Source of the DNA: a virus
Lineage: Duplodnaviria; Caudoviricetes
Virus record (IMG/VR): IMGVR_UViG_3300038316_000276
Coordinates: 1 to 30,637 of that record
Length of the DNA stretch: 30,637 nucleotides
Direction: 5' to 3' (one strand)
Part shown: positions 195 to 30,609 of the stretch, piece by piece
Numbering within the stretch: position 1 is the first letter of the stretch
Layout of the letters: every line of letters starts with the position of its first letter
Position numbers and translations under genes: made by a program
The notes under the pieces: generated by a model
Told to the model about the DNA's origin: nothing
Databases searched by the model: none
Seen by the model: only the letters and a program-made list of their open reading frames with translations

Positions 195-1079
195 TCAAAG
201 TGCAGTTGCATCTTCGAGCAATGTAAAGAAGTCATCTTCTGACAGAATTTCAATAGTTCCACCCTCGTCAATCAATTTTTGGGCCATCCTCTGTTTCGAG
301 GTCAGCTTTTGTTCCCGAATATGTGTATAAGGTGGAATACCGACAACCAGGTAGTCGGTCTCCGCAATCACACGATCCCAGACCTTGAGACCAGCAGCAG
401 CAGCCATTTCTGCACAATCTTTTCGAGGTTGGCTGAGGGTCCCGGTGAATACCACAGTCTTGCCTGACAATGGCATGTTTTCAGCGCCTTCCTTGCGGAT
501 ACGCTCAGGGTATCTTTCAGAAATACGGCGTTTCTTCAGGCGGTCAACCCAGTCAAGTATCTGGGTGCCACTTTCTTCCATGAGTATAACAACCAGCTTT
601 CCGGCCATTTCTGCATCAAGGACGGCGTCATGATGTCCATCAGTGCAAATGCCATAATGGAGGCAGGCATTTTCCAACCCGTAGCCTGAAGTAAGGAATG
701 CAGAATTAGCTCTGCGTAGGATCCTGGCGGAATCGAGGGTTAGTGTCAGCGGATTATCCATATCGTGAACAATACAGGCTTTTTGAATTGCCGAGCGATC
801 ATAATGGGTATGGTGGACGACCGGTTTGTCCTGAATGTAAACTGCAAGCATCTGAATCGCTTGGGGGACCAGGGGAGCATCTTTGACAGTTATTTCGTTG
901 ATGCCGTGAAGCCAGGTGTTTGAGAAATGCGTTTGAGGATTAACATAGGTGCCCCACTTACCGACAACCTTCCCCTGGTTGAAGGCAACGATCCCAATCT
1001 GGCAAATGCTAGCATAGTCTTCATTGGCCGTCTCAACATCGAGGGCGATGAAGTCAATTTCTTTCGGCCAGTCTTGCAT
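195..1079 (-). CDS. DEDDh (DnaQ-like) 3'-5' exonuclease with C-terminal BRCT domain
   Basis: ExoI ALDVET, ExoII HH..YD, ExoIII HHDAVLDA. C-terminal LSGKTVVFTGTL...TDYLVVG...ILSEDDF is a BRCT pattern. Confidence 0.9.
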   Translation of the reverse strand: MQDWPKEIDFIALDVETANEDYASICQIGIVAFNQGKVVGKWGTYVNPQTHFSNTWLHGINEITVKDAPLVPQAIQMLAVYIQDKPVVHHTHYDRSAIQKACIVHDMDNPLTLTLDSARILRRANSAFLTSGYGLENACLHYGICTDGHHDAVLDAEMAGKLVVILMEESGTQILDWVDRLKKRRISERYPERIRKEGAENMPLSGKTVVFTGTLSQPRKDCAEMAAAAGLKVWDRVIAETDYLVVGIPPYTHIREQKLTSKQRMAQKLIDEGGTIEILSEDDFFTLLEDATAL

Positions 1080-2299: not shown

Positions 2300-2440
2300 A
2301 TGCTGGAAGATATCCGAGATGTTTTAGTGCTCTCATTACCCCTTCTGGTTTTTATCGTGCCGATGGTCCTGCATGCTTTTTGGCAGGAAGAGATCCAACC
2401 CCGATTGAATAAAACCATAGCTGATCTCCATGTCAATTGA
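2300..2440 (+). CDS. Small membrane protein (46 aa, not in the ORF track)
   Basis: MLEDIRDVLVLSLPLLVFIVPMVLHAFWQEEIQPRLNKTIADLHVN. AAAGGA RBS, one hydrophobic helix, stop overlaps the next start. Confidence 0.55.
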   Translation: MLEDIRDVLVLSLPLLVFIVPMVLHAFWQEEIQPRLNKTIADLHVN

Positions 2441-3386
2441 CGAAAACAAGCGGATCGCCTGGAGGGATGCGGAGAAGCTGTGGTTGAGCCGGCAGAACAG
2501 CCGGCAAACAGCCCAGTCTTACGGATCCAGCCTGAGAGGGCTGCTCTTATTCTGCGGTAAGCCCGCCTGGGAGATCAGCCGGAAGGATATTGCCGCCTGG
2601 CTGGCTGACATGCACAAGGAAGGCAAAGCGGATTCGACCATTGCAACGCGGATCAGCGGAATCAAGAGCTTTTATAACTTCGTGATCCGGGAGTATGTGA
2701 GCATGGACATGGACGGTGAGGAATACCGGCTGCGAGAAGACAACCCGGCAAGCTCGTTCAAGGCTCCCAAGGTAGAACGATATGGCAAGGCGATCTGCTG
2801 GGATGAAGAGCAGGCTGGAGCATTTTTGCGGGCGATCGGCACTGACAACCTGCCAGGCTTGAGAAACAAGGCATTATTCACCGGGTACCTGCTGACGGGC
2901 CTGCGTAATTCAGAGCTGCGGATGCTGCGATATGAGGACCTGGAAGTTCTGCCCGGGGGAATCGTGATCATGCGATACCAGGGCAAAGGAAAACCCAACC
3001 AAACCAAAGAGATCTACCCGCCGGTGTATGAAGCGATCATGGCTTTTGCGGATGCAGAGCAAAAGTACACCGGGTTTGTTTTCCATCGTTATAGCCAGAT
3101 GGGTGATGTTATTGACCTGCCTATCTCAGACCAGACGGTCAGGGACAGCCTGAAGTATTACGCCAGGAAGGCCGGCTTGCGCACCAAAGATCTGAAGGTG
3201 CACAGCTTGCGGCATACGGCAGCGTACTTGCGGGCACAGGCAGGAGATGATGAAGACACGATAAGGAGGTTTTTGAAGCAAAACAACGTTGAAACTACCC
3301 GAATTTATTTACAGAAGATCATGCCAAATCCAGACAAGACCTGGATGACTGTCAGTGAAATGCTGGGCTTGTCAACTGAAAAGTAA
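2430..3386 (+). CDS. XerC/D-like tyrosine recombinase (second recombinase, in the early operon)
   Basis: SAM-like N-domain, TGLRNSEL, GKGK, HSLRHT and TTRIY. The usual LGH motif reads LKQ. Confidence 0.9.
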   Translation: MSIDENKRIAWRDAEKLWLSRQNSRQTAQSYGSSLRGLLLFCGKPAWEISRKDIAAWLADMHKEGKADSTIATRISGIKSFYNFVIREYVSMDMDGEEYRLREDNPASSFKAPKVERYGKAICWDEEQAGAFLRAIGTDNLPGLRNKALFTGYLLTGLRNSELRMLRYEDLEVLPGGIVIMRYQGKGKPNQTKEIYPPVYEAIMAFADAEQKYTGFVFHRYSQMGDVIDLPISDQTVRDSLKYYARKAGLRTKDLKVHSLRHTAAYLRAQAGDDEDTIRRFLKQNNVETTRIYLQKIMPNPDKTWMTVSEMLGLSTEK

Positions 3387-8112: not shown

Positions 8113-9738
8113 ATGAACACACTTTATTATGGGGATAATCTGGATATTCTTCAGCGTTATATTAAAGATGAGTCAGTAGATCTGGTTTATTTGGATCCAC
8201 CTTTCAATTCCAACGCGAACTACAATGTGCTGTTTGCCCAAAAGGATGGGTCGCAATCCAGTGCCCAGATCCAGGCTTTTGAAGACACATGGCAATGGGA
8301 CCAAAATGCCATTCAAACCTATACCCGTGAGGTGGAAAGGGGCGGCCCTGTTGCAGACGCATTGAGGGCGTTTAACTTGATTTTAGGCGCCAGCAACATG
8401 ATGGCATATCTGACGATGATGGCGCCGAGATTGCAGGAATTAAGGCGCGTATTGAAACCCACTGGAAGCCTTTACTTGCACTGCGACCCCACCGCAAGCC
8501 ATTATCTGAAGGTGTTATTGGATATGGTGTTCGGTGCGGAGAATTTCAAGAATGAAATTGTGTGGAAAAGGAATTTCACCAAGAAGGGTTCACAATTTGA
8601 TATGACCCGTTTTGCAAATAACGCCGATATCATACTTTTCTACTCGAAAACAGATAGAGCACGTTTCAAAACAGTAAAAGAAAAGAATTTGAATGAGGAT
8701 TTAGAGAAAAAATACAATCTGGTCGACGATAAAGGGAGAAGGTTCAAGTCAGAACCCTTAGAGCTTCCCCATATGATGGCACGCCCAAACTTGGTTTATG
8801 AATTTATGGGTTATACGCCAAAATGGGGATGGATGATGTCAAAGGAGAAACTCGAAGAACTTCAAAACCAAGAGAAAATATATTTTACATCTACAGGGAA
8901 ACCAAGAAGGAAAAATTTCTTGGCTGACTATTCTGGAACCGAGGTTGATAATATTTGGATCGACATTCATCCTCTAGGTCAAAAACAATCTGAGTCTATG
9001 GGTTATCCAACCCAAAAACCACTTGCTCTATTGGAGAGAATTCTCAAAGCCTCCAGCGAACCTGGAGATGTGGTTCTAGATCCATTTTGTGGTTGTGGGA
9101 CGGCGATCGCCGCCGCTCAAAAATTAGGACGAAATTGGATCGGGATCGACATCACCCATCTTGCGATTAGTCTGGTAAAAAGACGAATGGAAGATGCTTT
9201 TGGCGAATCTATCCAATACGAAGTGGTTGGTGAGCCAACAACAGTGGATGGAGCACGAACACTTGCAGAACAAGATAAATACCAGTTTCAATGGTGGGCA
9301 TTGGGGCTGGTTGGAGCAAGACCTGCAGATCAGAAAAAAGGTGCGGATCATGGCGTGGACGGTCGGCTGTACTTCCATGATGACGCGTCAGGAAAAACAA
9401 AACAGGTCGTTCTTTCAGTAAAGGGTGGCCAGCATGTCAGCGTCAGCCATATCCGTGATCTGAAGGGTGTTTTGGACCGAGACAAGGCGGAAATTGGCGT
9501 TTATATTTCCCTCGAAGAAGCAACCAAACCGATGCGAGCAGAAGCTGCTCAAGCTGGTTTTTATCAGTCGGATATTTGGAACCGGGATTACCCGAAAGTA
9601 CAAATTTTGACCATTGCCGAATTATTGGACGGTAAGCAGATTGACATGCCACCGATCCAGCAGGTGAACCAGACCTTCAGACGGGCAAAGAGGGAAAAGA
9701 AAAATGAAGGTGGGCAGCTGGCAATCGATTTGGAATAA
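8113..9738 (+). CDS. N6/N4 DNA methyltransferase (beta class) fused to a C-terminal Mrr-like endonuclease domain
   Basis: YLDPPF precedes YPTQKP and LDPFCGCGT. C-terminal GADHGVDG...VLSVKGG is PD-(D/E)xK-like. Confidence 0.88.
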   Translation: MNTLYYGDNLDILQRYIKDESVDLVYLDPPFNSNANYNVLFAQKDGSQSSAQIQAFEDTWQWDQNAIQTYTREVERGGPVADALRAFNLILGASNMMAYLTMMAPRLQELRRVLKPTGSLYLHCDPTASHYLKVLLDMVFGAENFKNEIVWKRNFTKKGSQFDMTRFANNADIILFYSKTDRARFKTVKEKNLNEDLEKKYNLVDDKGRRFKSEPLELPHMMARPNLVYEFMGYTPKWGWMMSKEKLEELQNQEKIYFTSTGKPRRKNFLADYSGTEVDNIWIDIHPLGQKQSESMGYPTQKPLALLERILKASSEPGDVVLDPFCGCGTAIAAAQKLGRNWIGIDITHLAISLVKRRMEDAFGESIQYEVVGEPTTVDGARTLAEQDKYQFQWWALGLVGARPADQKKGADHGVDGRLYFHDDASGKTKQVVLSVKGGQHVSVSHIRDLKGVLDRDKAEIGVYISLEEATKPMRAEAAQAGFYQSDIWNRDYPKVQILTIAELLDGKQIDMPPIQQVNQTFRRAKREKKNEGGQLAIDLE

Positions 9739-9803
9739 TTCAAGGTTATAAGGGAGTGGTTTTGTGGAAAACAGTAGAACGATGGTGTAGAATATTTATA
9801 CAT

Positions 9804-9876
9804 CTCCCCGTAACTCAATGGATAGAGTAGATACCTGCTAAGTATAAGGTTGCGCGTTCGAATCGCGCCGGGGAGA
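9804..9876 (+). tRNA. Phage tRNA with anticodon GCT (Ser codons) on a class I, Arg-like body
   Basis: Acceptor CTCCCCG/CGGGGAG; D arm ACTC-AATGGATA-GAGT; anticodon arm GATAC-CTGCTAA-GTATA; 5-nt variable loop AGGTT; T arm GCGCG-TTCGAAT-CGCGC; discriminator A; no encoded CCA. Confidence 0.9.
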
Positions 9877-9889
9877 TTGTAAATTCCGT

Positions 9890-9918
9890 TTGCACATTTA
9901 TCATAAAAATGCTATACT
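9890..9918 (+). promoter_or_regulatory. Sigma70-type promoter with no protein gene directly downstream
   Basis: TTGCAC-17 bp-TATACT with extended TG. Confidence 0.65.
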
Positions 9919-9924
9919 ATTTTT

Positions 9925-10073
9925 TAGCAGGTATCTAGCCTATTGAGTTAGACCAAAAATGACAAAAAGCCCCATGCCGCTTGTCAGCCCCGCCCCAAGA
10001 GTCCCAAACTCGAGGGGCGGTGTGCATTTAAGGAGGGGATACGGCCGGTGTCCTTTCCGTATAGTTGTTTTTT
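9925..10073 (+). ncRNA. Putative structured small RNA
   Basis: Four successive hairpins (9934-9952, 9960-9986, 9990-10020, 10032-10058), then a T-rich tract. Confidence 0.4.
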
Positions 10074-10085
10074 CCCCATGAAAGC

Positions 10086-10114
10086 TTGTAATCAGCCCCC
10101 ATATATGGTAATAT
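10086..10114 (+). promoter_or_regulatory. Putative late promoter
   Basis: TTGTAA-17 bp-TAATAT with extended TG, about 105 bp before the holin. Confidence 0.55.
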
Positions 10115-10153
10115 ATTAGGTAGAAAACCGTATATCTGGCGTTTGTTGGCTCC

Positions 10154-10203
10154 AACCAACCATTCATCTTGAGAGAGATGCCGTGGTTGGTTTTTTGTTT
10201 TTA
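10154..10203 (+). terminator. Terminator/attenuator in the late-operon leader
   Basis: AACCAACCA..CATCT..AGATG..TGGTTGGTT followed by a long T-run. Confidence 0.65.
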
Positions 10204-10220
10204 AGTCCTGGAGGATAAAG

Positions 10221-10622
10221 ATGGAATGGATGCCAATTTTGAGTAAAGTGGTTGAGGCGGTGCTGGTGGCGATTTTGCCGCCATTGGCAGTCGCACTTAT
10301 TGCATGGTTGATCGGGCTTGCGAAAAAGGCCTGGGCAGAGTTCAAGTTGATCAACCCGACGGTGGCAGATTACCTGGAATATGCTGCCAGGTTTGCCGTT
10401 GAAGCTGCTGAACAAGCGGGTGCCGCTAAACTGATAGAAGACAAAAAGGAATACGCTATCAGAATCGCGGAGGTCTGGCTTGCAGAATACCACGTAACTA
10501 TTGACATTGATCTGATCGATGCCGCGATTGAGAAGGCAGTACGTGAAATGAAGCACCCGGAAACGGCACCGCAAATCGGCGATGTTAAGCAGGTCAAGGC
10601 AACCCGCAACCTGGCAGGATAA
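10221..10622 (+). CDS. Phage holin, LL-H-like
   Basis: Single N-terminal TM helix, then AVEAAEQ...KKEYA...IDAAIEKAVREMK. GGAGG RBS. Confidence 0.82.
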   Translation: MEWMPILSKVVEAVLVAILPPLAVALIAWLIGLAKKAWAEFKLINPTVADYLEYAARFAVEAAEQAGAAKLIEDKKEYAIRIAEVWLAEYHVTIDIDLIDAAIEKAVREMKHPETAPQIGDVKQVKATRNLAG

Positions 10623-14967: not shown

Positions 14968-15809
14968 AATTGAACAGAACTGCAGTACAAGAAAACTCCA
15001 TTGAAACCAGGAAAACCCTGGCATTTGATGCCGTGGGGAATGGTGAGGTGGAAATCTACTGCTACGGCGACATTTGGGACAGTTTCTGGTTCTGGGATCC
15101 GGCCAATCCTCCCCCGGGGTATGTGACCCAGGACGCGATCAAGGAAGCATTGGGCCAGGCAGGCGGAAAGCCGATCTTGTTCCGTATCCATTCCTCGGGT
15201 GGGGACATGATGGCAGCCAGCGCAATCCGTGCCCTGCTGATGTCTTACCAAGGAAGGGTGACCTGTCAGGTTGACGGGTTGTGCGCAAGCGCGGCAACCT
15301 ACATCGCCACTGCAGGTGCAAAGGTGACGATGCAGGACAGCGCCTTTTTCATGATCCACGACCCCTGGACGATCACGATTGGGAATGTGGACGACCACCG
15401 GGTGACGATTAGCATGCTAAAAGAGCTGAAAAAAGGGATTGTTGAAGCATACATGGCAAAAAGTACGCTTGAACAGAGTCAGATTGAAAAAATGATGTCA
15501 GATGAGACCTGGATGAGCGCACAAACGGCGCTTGAGAATGGTTTTGTAGATGAAATCATCAGCCAGCCTGCATCCGCAAGAGCGGCTGTTATGGCAAAGG
15601 ATTCACTGCCGGTGATGAATCACGCCTTGAAGGGATACCGAGAGGTACCGGAAGCGGTGAAGGAAATGATGAATGTTACGGAGGAGCCGGCAACCAGCGT
15701 GCCGGAGAAAGCCGCCGATACAGAGCCCGACGAGGGCGAAATAGAACGCGAGGGAGCCGTCCAGGCACTGCGCGAAAAAACCCAAAAACTCAAGGAGATG
15801 AGAGTATGA
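14964..15809 (+). CDS. Head maturation protease, ClpP-like
   Basis: IHSSGG, GLCASAAT (catalytic Ser), MIHDP, ETWMSAQTALENGFVD. Confidence 0.95.
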   Translation: MKLNRTAVQENSIETRKTLAFDAVGNGEVEIYCYGDIWDSFWFWDPANPPPGYVTQDAIKEALGQAGGKPILFRIHSSGGDMMAASAIRALLMSYQGRVTCQVDGLCASAATYIATAGAKVTMQDSAFFMIHDPWTITIGNVDDHRVTISMLKELKKGIVEAYMAKSTLEQSQIEKMMSDETWMSAQTALENGFVDEIISQPASARAAVMAKDSLPVMNHALKGYREVPEAVKEMMNVTEEPATSVPEKAADTEPDEGEIEREGAVQALREKTQKLKEMRV

Positions 15810-29432: not shown

Positions 29433-30356
29433 TCAGAGCCCCCAATTTGTGACAGGGCTTGCGCGGCGGTGGGCGGCCTGGATGTCGACCTGAGCGATAG
29501 ACAGATACCGCTTGACCATGTCCAAGGTTGAGTGTCCCAAAATCCTCTGGAGTGTGTAGATGTCTCCGCCATTTCTCAAGAAGTTGATGGCGAAGGTATG
29601 GCGGAATCGGTGGACTGTTGGATCCTGAACACCAGCGCGCTCACCCAGGCGGTAGATAGATTTGAGGAAGTTGTCGCGGTGAATATGAGTCCCATTCATA
29701 GTCGCAAAGGCTGGTGAATTGATGACCATATCAGGGCGTGTCGAAAAGTAAGTCCACATTGCCTGGGAGGTTCTGCTTGAGATCGGGATCTGTCGCTCTT
29801 TTCTGCCTTTTCCCATCACCATGATGTTTCGATTGCGCAGATCCACATCCTTAAACTTCAGGTTGCAGTACTCACTTACTCGGATCCCGGTATCGAGAAG
29901 CAACAGCAAGCTTGTTTTCAGGCGCTTTCCTTCCGGGAAATCAGTTGCAGACTCTCGCTGGCCTGGAAGCAGGTAAGCCTTCCTTTTTTCACAGCTGGCC
30001 AGCATTGCTTTGATGTCTGATTCTGTATAAGGCACTATGGCCAATTGATCCGGCCGAGGAGGTGTGTATTGTTGGGGCACTTTTTCATCCACCAGCTTCT
30101 GCTGGTATGCCCAGGTCCAGAGAGCTGAAAGCCCCGTATGGTAGTTTTTCAGGGTTTTTTTGCTGAGATGCTGGTGCTGGCTGATAAAACCAGCAATATG
30201 CTCAACGTTGATCTCATTAATCAGCAGATCATCGCCGATAAAGCGTTGGAACTTGCGAAAGGTGTTGAAGTAGTCCGCCAGGGTATTTGGTGAGAGCTTT
30301 GGCTCTGCAAAAAGGATATAACCTTCGAGTGCTTGAGTAAAAGTAAGTTGTTTCAT
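29433..30356 (-). CDS. int: Phage integrase (tyrosine recombinase)
   Basis: TGIRVSE, GKGRKER, HRFRHTF and LGHSTLDMVKRY; adjacent to att. Confidence 0.95.
   Translation of the reverse strand: MKQLTFTQALEGYILFAEPKLSPNTLADYFNTFRKFQRFIGDDLLINEINVEHIAGFISQHQHLSKKTLKNYHTGLSALWTWAYQQKLVDEKVPQQYTPPRPDQLAIVPYTESDIKAMLASCEKRKAYLLPGQRESATDFPEGKRLKTSLLLLLDTGIRVSEYCNLKFKDVDLRNRNIMVMGKGRKERQIPISSRTSQAMWTYFSTRPDMVINSPAFATMNGTHIHRDNFLKSIYRLGERAGVQDPTVHRFRHTFAINFLRNGGDIYTLQRILGHSTLDMVKRYLSIAQVDIQAAHRRASPVTNWGL

Positions 30357-30534: not shown

Positions 30535-30609
<75 letters not shown>

Follow-up and report, generated by a model that had tools for sequence, protein, structure and literature searches.

What does a tRNA gene do in a temperate prophage when its anticodon and its body point to different amino acids? 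The gene in question lies at 9804-9876 on the plus strand of the window (the whole stretch of viral DNA analysed here, 30,637 nucleotides), was called tRNA-Ser(gct) at 9803-9877 by ARAGORN and matched Rfam RF00005 over 9804-9876 with 61.3 bits in a local scan. The whole-window Rfam scan at the gathering threshold missed it, and filtered scans can therefore overlook members of this tRNA family. By direct reading, the tRNA forms a 7/5 cloverleaf with a perfect acceptor stem of 7 bp (C1-G72, U2-A71), an 8-nt D loop with A15 (9818) and A20 (9822), U33, the anticodon GCT at 9837-9839 that begins with G34 and reads AGC and AGU, a 5-nt variable loop (9847-9851) whose last base, U48 (9851), belongs to the A15-U48 pair, and the discriminator A73 (9876). 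All pairs were kept except for the G27.A43 mismatch (9830/9846). No CCA is encoded, and the same is true of the host tRNA-Val at the attachment site. An earlier sequence-only reading of this DNA had reported the cloverleaf, GCT, the 5-nt variable loop, A20, A73, A15-U48 and G27.A43, as well as a TAGAAT box at 9788-9793, and each of these was present. The box serves as -10 element of a predicted tRNA promoter (9765-9793, plus strand; -35 at 9765-9770) with 9 of 12 consensus matches, and the region upstream of the tRNA resembled that of an Anaerolineales member (L005), with 9 of 500 shuffles scoring as high.

The letters of the tRNA were unchanged in the contigs of all four DNA runs (four studies) that span the gene, three of these runs being possible sources of the window DNA itself. 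A sequencing error at G9837, the position for which a check of raw reads had been proposed earlier, is rejected on this agreement. The four RNA-labelled runs were available as contigs only, and the sole contig covering the tRNA was 261 nt long and came from a run marked as probably DNA. Long contigs of a relative with a different cassette were found in two metatranscriptome runs. These contigs count neither towards expression of the cassette nor against it.

In bacteria, arginine identity is given by A20, C35, U or G at position 36 and A or G at position 73, according to Table 1 of PMC9976931, and serine identity mainly by the long variable arm, according to the same source. The window tRNA carries the whole arginine set (A20 at 9822, C35 at 9838, U36 at 9839 and A73 at 9876), and the one arginine feature from which it departs is an anticodon for an arginine codon, since the anticodon is GCT. 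Of the serine features, the long variable arm is replaced by the 5-nt loop, and G73, G1-C72 and G2-C71 are replaced by A73, C1-G72 and U2-A71. The earlier description of an arginine-type body with a serine anticodon was thus borne out, and its prediction that the tRNA would be charged with arginine agrees with the tabulated identity set of PMC9976931. Among 64 tRNAs from the loci of three host MAGs, the closest was tRNA-Arg(TCT) with a score of 52, and the top five comprised four Arg tRNAs and another member of the family, versus scores of 29.5-33 for the long-arm Ser(GCT) tRNAs. An A20-type D loop alone is not specific for arginine, because it was also found in phage tRNAs assigned to Lys(UUU), Thr, Met and Asn (L142-L261). 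These are probably ordinary for the most part, with truncated acceptor stems in a few.

The sequence-only reading had argued against a clean reassignment of the code, pointing to catalytic serines encoded by AGT at 1331-1333 on the minus strand in CI and by AGC at 15288-15290 in ClpP; both codons are as described, and the terminase led to the same conclusion. In an alignment of the window protein with 119 of 120 listed homologues, the nine AGY columns contained 46.7% serine and 2.2% arginine, and the TCN columns 46.6% serine. The long-arm tRNA-Ser(GCT) was kept beside the short one in 3/3 host MAGs. On these two grounds, a reassignment of AGY to arginine was rejected. A "lock-and-key" need for arginine at AGY codons was likewise rejected in the terminase and in 11 IS1-like neighbours, transposases with 28% serine and 5% arginine in the alignment at their AGY positions; the check as a whole covered the terminase, the 11 IS1-like and five IS1595 proteins. 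Since the normal Ser(GCT) tRNA is kept and AGY sits in serine columns, charging of the short tRNA with arginine would be an error in competition with the correct tRNA.

A second gene, at 9890-10073, had been overlooked by the sequence-only reading. A predicted sigma70 promoter (9890-9918, plus strand) with a -35 box at 9890-9895 and an extended -10 box TATACT at 9913-9918 is followed by a 12-nt stretch at 9926-9937 (plus strand) that is the exact complement of tRNA positions 9828-9839; the full match is 14 nt long (9924-9937 against 9828-9841). This seed, which starts 8 nt after the extended -10 box, so that the predicted RNA begins with AGC at 9926, covers the anticodon loop and the 5' strand of the anticodon stem, and its first codon-like triplet is the serine codon AGC. 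Nowhere else in the 30.6-kb prophage but in the tRNA does the seed have a complement of at least 10 nt. A second block at 9942-9950 (plus strand) matches, as an exact complement, 9 nt of the tRNA D arm (9811-9819), including the unusual A10 of this copy, and is modelled as part of the first hairpin of the predicted sRNA. The predicted antisense sRNA, a candidate antitoxin of about 150 nt (9926-10073, plus strand), consists of the seed, hairpins and a T-rich tail at 10062-10073, and we infer both of its ends. Its last hairpin (10032-10058) was not called by the terminator scan. The fold of 9924-10075 had a z-score of -3.76, with 0 of 200 shuffles as stable, and Rfam scans returned no family for the sRNA region. 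The tRNA and this promoter-led structured RNA are 49 nt apart, and of the short ORFs there, the one that was scanned gave no Pfam match. No terminator was called between the tRNA and the seed in the window, and cis pairing on a read-through transcript is therefore possible there. A related contig over 9853-9958 contained 9 differing letters, of which the 7 listed ones all fall at 9887-9904 and miss both promoter boxes and both complementary blocks. A middle hairpin domain (9987-10025) is common to the predicted sRNAs of three members, those of the window, L118 and L012, in the last two downstream of the seed, and is absent from the others. Given the antisense gene, the locus is therefore read as a two-RNA module instead of the lone mistranslator proposed before.

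Relatives of the tRNA were collected by sequence patterns. The first pattern, this body with GCT, matched 4 viral stretches, and in GTDB genomes the same GCT pattern gave 10 matches, from Anaerolineales, Acidobacteriota, Deltaproteobacteria, Flavobacteriaceae, Paracoccaceae, Planctomycetaceae and Saccharibacteria. A variant with a 9-nt D loop matched 82 metagenome stretches; this metagenome pattern covered 9-nt D loops and GCT only, and therefore the 8-nt form and ACT members were beyond its reach. A GCT/ACT pattern matched 45 viral stretches, 27 of them distinct. In total, the family comprised 108 distinct GCT/ACT tRNAs including that of the window, from mobile elements of many phyla; the L005 tRNA was left out because its contig ends inside the gene. 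Among 401 genomes of the class of G001, the single match was this seed genome itself, and in two other phyla 2/401 and 1/401 genomes matched. In phage and plasmid collections, BLAST matches were partial and confined to the level of the tRNA. The members, which are not phylogenetically independent samples, were classified as intact (at most one acceptor mismatch, 65) or truncated (outer acceptor pairs lost, 43).

The stems of the family showed paired changes. Both-side changes were detected in 18 of 21 pairs among 51 of the 55 intact GCT sequences, a set that excludes the four with one acceptor mismatch. The anticodon stem was 89% paired and the T stem 97.6%, with compensatory changes, and neither stem was selected by the patterns. 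The corresponding figure for the acceptor stem is circular, as that stem was selected by pattern. The main search patterns also required A20 and the loop sequence, whose conservation throughout the family is therefore no separate line of evidence. Inner anticodon-stem mismatches occurred in 20/65 intact members, compared with 3/101 Arg(CCT) and 0/104 Arg(TCT) controls. Before the tRNA, -10 boxes were weakly enriched: 17 of 65 intact members have one (8.1 expected), as do 20 of 98 controls (12.3 expected). The sequence-only reading had named a GCT unique to this copy as a result that would refute it; this refutation failed, as GCT or ACT recurs in 108 distinct relatives whose stems covary.

The antisense complement was also found across the family. 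An exact complement of at least 10 nt covering the anticodon, within 300 nt downstream, was present in 11/60 intact members with enough flank, in 14/3496 swapped pairs and in 1/42 truncated members. A relaxed four-flank score exceeded the 99th percentile of swaps in 17/65 intact and 0/43 truncated members, and the 95th percentile in 20 intact members and 1 truncated member. For a non-circular test, sites were chosen by a promoter followed by AGYAG, with stem complementarity unused. Such sites adjoined 17/65 intact members, 1/43 truncated members and 4/102 Arg(CCT) controls (a promoter followed by AGGAG, 0/102 Arg(CCT) controls), and pairing at 5/5 positions with the stem of the adjacent tRNA was seen for 12 of 19 sites beside intact members, versus 0.33% of swaps. 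The 20 partnered members have 19 different anticodon stems, with a median of 24 differing positions; the acceptor stem is intact in all 20, and position 73 is always A or G. Two of them, L119 and L134, are ACT members, and their seeds start with AGT, not AGC. When L062, a near copy of L045, was excluded, 19 partners remained; a -10 box preceded the seed in 16 of them (background 10.9%) and a full promoter in 12 (background 1%). Four partner arrangements were observed, namely downstream, upstream, convergent and divergent.

A prospective search made after the hypothesis had been formed, in which A20 was not required (802 genomes of two phyla), returned one new member, L700. It has A20, G73 and, 58 nt downstream, a 13-nt seed with an 8-nt D-arm block behind a promoter-like site; this single prospective case agreed with the prediction. 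No partner was detected for 45/65 intact members, some of which have short flanks, and therefore either the tRNA is often tolerated alone or the search misses other forms of partner. In L048, a 9-nt complement of the anticodon arm lies in a leader hairpin about 40 nt upstream of the tRNA, and L057 looks similar; the L048 leader is a possible cis-acting version of the complement.

These data bear directly on the reading of the tRNA as a decaying or freshly mutated tRNA-Arg(CCT/TCT) beside an inverted duplication that arose locally by chance. A single change separates GCT and ACT from CCT or TCT, and 45 viral stretches is a small number beside estimates of roughly 310 for CCT and 13,000 for CCT and TCT together. 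The G27.A43 mismatch and the missing CCA would also fit decay, an option that the sequence-only reading had listed, finding the mismatch and a weak anticodon stem in keeping with it. However, a 27-43 mismatch was found in 9/101 Arg(CCT) and 9/104 Arg(TCT) controls, the host tRNA-Val also lacks an encoded CCA, and the window copy has only one broken pair although no relative or control is closer to it than 18 differing positions. The compensatory changes in the anticodon and T stems and the covarying antisense partner speak against decay as well, and a chance origin would not explain why, in four arrangements, the complement follows a -10 box at a distance of 5-8 nt. Among the CCT controls, matches of at least 10 nt occurred in 4/91; all were on the opposite strand and upstream, none lay at a promoter start, two were att-like direct repeats and two covered the 3' side. 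The decay reading is largely refuted, and we regard it as scarcely credible. Of the overall interpretation given earlier, the arginine-type body, the sequence-based prediction of arginine charging and the absence of reassignment stood, and the decay option was not supported.

The specificity of pairing was evaluated by duplex energy. By this measure, 16 of 19 sRNAs paired best with their cognate among the 19 tRNAs, and 12 of 19 tRNAs with their cognate sRNA. The window duplex reached -31.5 kcal/mol versus a mean of -22.2 kcal/mol; the predicted co-fold comprised about 23 bp, and its net gain over the folded RNAs was modest (about -6 kcal/mol). The polarity of the pair could in principle be the reverse, with the sRNA as an effector that blocks host tRNA-Ser(GCU) through its 5' AGCAG and the phage tRNA as a sponge. 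The first five sRNA bases do fit the loops of many host tRNA-Ser(GCU), and tRNA-sequestering RNA toxins exist, CreT being described as one. Against this, the seeds follow the stem of the extra tRNA; those of G002 and G005 match the extra tRNA and not the stem of host Ser(GCT), and the window sRNA gave -18.0 kcal/mol with Anaerolineales Ser(GCT), used as a proxy for the host, compared with -31.5 kcal/mol for its own tRNA. The reversed polarity is, in our view, very improbable.

The truncated relatives raise another possibility. Among controls from the same scan design, this class accounted for 1/102 Arg(CCT) and 0/104 Arg(TCT) tRNAs. The 43 truncated tRNA-like genes (for example L008:3990-4062, L098:2986-3058, L099, L104 and L123) have GCT or ACT loops and retain three arms (D, anticodon and T) as well as about 4 inner acceptor pairs, but have lost the outer 2-3 pairs and stand without an antisense partner. 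They group together, about 33 of the 43 having another truncated sequence as nearest neighbour, and are possibly a separate decoy or mimic class. As 43/108 relatives are without the outer acceptor pairs, a role without charging is therefore indicated for part of the family. Extended to the window, this would make the tRNA a non-decoding decoy or mimic aimed at an anticodon nuclease, ArgRS or a modifying enzyme, with an sRNA that only times its availability. Besides the truncated class, such a role would suit the TIR, AAA_21 and Abi_2 domains of some neighbours, which are often seen in defence islands. The window copy, however, has a perfect acceptor stem, the partner tracks the chargeable form (by the relaxed score above), and a harmless RNA would need no sequence-specific silencer, so that a decoy role in the window is improbable. 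That partners accompany chargeable and not truncated members is as a poison-antidote pair predicts.

The match between seed and tRNA changes in step across distant microbes, so the pair likely forms a poison-antidote module. We are highly confident that the tRNA and the sRNA are a functional pair, and we consider it probable that they form an all-RNA module of a Ser-to-Arg miscoding tRNA as toxin and an antisense sRNA as antitoxin. Once expressed, the tRNA would be processed, supplied with CCA by the host and arginylated by host ArgRS, and would then insert arginine at AGC and AGU serine codons. Toxicity of such errors has precedents, because natural missense tRNAs arrested the growth of E. 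coli in the experiments described in PMC5389517 and PMC10404621. Neutralisation would start with pairing of the single-stranded 5' AGCAG of the sRNA to the anticodon loop, after which the sRNA may displace the anticodon stem from its 5' side and open the D arm as well, giving the predicted duplex of about 23 bp; the G27.A43 mismatch could ease this invasion. The cloverleaf would be opened, the anticodon and A20 hidden, and the tRNA kept inactive. The presumed trigger is an end of sRNA synthesis, through loss of the prophage or shut-off by another phage, upon which the more stable tRNA would poison translation, with addiction or abortive infection as the outcome.

The same two RNAs could instead provide regulated, non-lethal mistranslation, in which arginine is inserted at AGY and the sRNA acts as a rheostat that permits a low level of variation in the proteome under stress or prophage induction, with neither addiction nor abortive infection. 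The many intact members without a detected partner are compatible with this, and the inner stem mismatches enriched in the family could weaken decoding. Tolerance to carbenicillin was raised by Pro-mistranslation according to PMC10404621. Inner mismatches, however, were not significantly commoner in unpartnered members (16/45 versus 4/20 partnered, p = 0.26), and the module is found in prophages and transposon cargo and is swapped between relatives. Addiction and defence cassettes are typically exchanged in mobile elements. We consider the rheostat unlikely, and we favour the toxin-antitoxin module. For the family as a whole we lean, by a small measure, towards a widespread class of RNA-only selfish modules, each with a miscoding tRNA toxin and a trans-acting anti-anticodon sRNA antitoxin; changes of stem and seed would create specificity groups that do not cross-react and are exchanged by prophages like immunity cassettes, and other miscoding tRNAs may share the design.

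Type VIII toxin-antitoxin systems (CreTA and SdsR-RyeA, as described in PMC10767807) are similar to the predicted pair in having two adjacent non-coding RNA genes, one a predicted neutraliser here, and in their mobile setting; they differ in that the predicted toxin here is a tRNA acting by miscoding. According to the same description, CreA, a guide flanked by CRISPR repeats, works through the CRISPR Cascade at the level of transcription, whereas the window partner complements the tRNA directly, and SdsR and RyeA overlap on opposite strands, whereas separate genes in four arrangements are found here. No Cas domain was detected in the 40 window ORFs, and no CRISPR repeat family by Rfam. The type VIII heading would apply only if toxicity and rescue were shown. 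The tRNA-ProX genes (ProA, ProN and ProT of Streptomyces and Kitasatospora; PMC10404621, PMC11415595) share the conflict of body and anticodon and the mistranslation, which PMC10404621 presents as dedicated and toxic in E. coli. As described in these papers, tRNA-ProX has A33, A34 and A15-A48 on its Pro body and is encoded together with ProRSx, in contrast to the Arg body, U33, G34 and A15-U48 of the window tRNA; unlike ProX, no synthetase domain was found by Pfam in the 40 window ORFs, and the antisense partner and the spread through mobile DNA of many phyla set the window tRNA further apart. The window tRNA does carry C1-G72 together with A73, but C1-G72 is found in only 4 of the 20 partnered members.

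The allo-tRNAs (Mukai et al., PMC5389517) resemble the family in causing missense and in lying near transposons and toxin-antitoxin genes. They are described as having an 8/4 or 9/3 acceptor branch and mostly serine identity, and the window tRNA, with its canonical 7/5 branch and arginine identity, is their mirror case; the words "antisense" and "complementary" are absent from the main text of PMC5389517. The tRNAs with which phages oppose anticodon nucleases, for example those against PARIS (PMC11464382), are also phage-borne with altered features of the anticodon arm. They replace a cleaved host tRNA, whereas the feature here is a conflict of identity and anticodon with a silencing partner. 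In type I antitoxin RNAs such as Sok, a free 5' transcript end nucleates pairing on the target loop. Sok-type antitoxins target the mRNA of a toxic peptide, and the target here is the anticodon arm of a tRNA. The window tRNA lacks the defining features of tRNA-Ser, ProX, allo-tRNA and CreTA. Searches of the open-access literature brought up no paper on a family of Arg-body GCT/ACT tRNAs, on a small RNA antisense to a miscoding tRNA or on a toxin-antitoxin system with a code error as poison or a tRNA-aimed small RNA as antidote; the supplementary tables on allo-tRNAs or tRNAscan-SE may list members of the family. If the proposal is true, an error of the genetic code would be the poison and a tRNA-aimed small RNA the antidote of a toxin-antitoxin system. 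It would offer a testable reason why mobile elements keep harmful miscoding tRNAs, a question left open for allo-tRNAs, and it would mean that such genes pass for ordinary tRNA-Ser under anticodon-based annotation. Nature would then offer about 20 tRNA/anti-tRNA pairs, each specific for its own partner, for switchable codon reading and for containment circuits in laboratory strains.

The window is a complete temperate prophage, bounded by a 45-bp core at 32-76 that is repeated at 30535-30579 within the host tRNA-Val(CAC) (30535-30609, minus strand), its integration site. It encodes CI/Cro, terminase, portal, ClpP, tail and lysin proteins and an integrase (29433-30356), and because the named best terminase matches are Anaerolineae, its host is probably an Anaerolineaceae bacterium. 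The slot of the cassette is non-coding; upstream of it lies a DNA methylase gene whose product has an Mrr-like domain (8113-9738, plus strand; PF01555, PF04471), and the first gene after it encodes a holin (10221-10622, plus strand; PF09682). In related phages (runs X16 and X17), 9711-9794 and the sequence from 10085 onwards were kept with 311 other letters between them, and another related phage kept only 9960-9989 of the slot 9795-10084. The slot is modular and may hold other tRNA/anti-tRNA pairs. Among 12 holin relatives in IMG/VR, none had a tRNA just before the holin. The structured holin leader at 10085-10220, with a promoter-like start of its own, is kept in related phages.

The neighbours of family members often belong to prophages or encode recombinases, methylases and IS1-like or IS1595 transposases; many are without a Pfam match, and no conserved protein partner was found among them. 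The largest neighbour clusters were IS1-like (13 proteins), DNA methylases (7 and 5) and IS1595 (7). Ten intact members (L027, L042, L045, L048, L051, L054, L061, L067, L125 and L133) adjoin an IS1-like DDE transposase of about 280-380 aa, with the tRNA mostly upstream on the same strand and most without a detected partner, and other intact members adjoin IS1595 transposases. Elsewhere in the window, the CI repressor is immediately followed by a DnaQ-like exonuclease with a weak BRCT match (195-1079, minus strand). The early region also encodes a second tyrosine recombinase (2430-3386), which contains 11 AGC codons and reads LKQ where the integrase reads LGH, presumably the motif near the catalytic Tyr of tyrosine recombinases.
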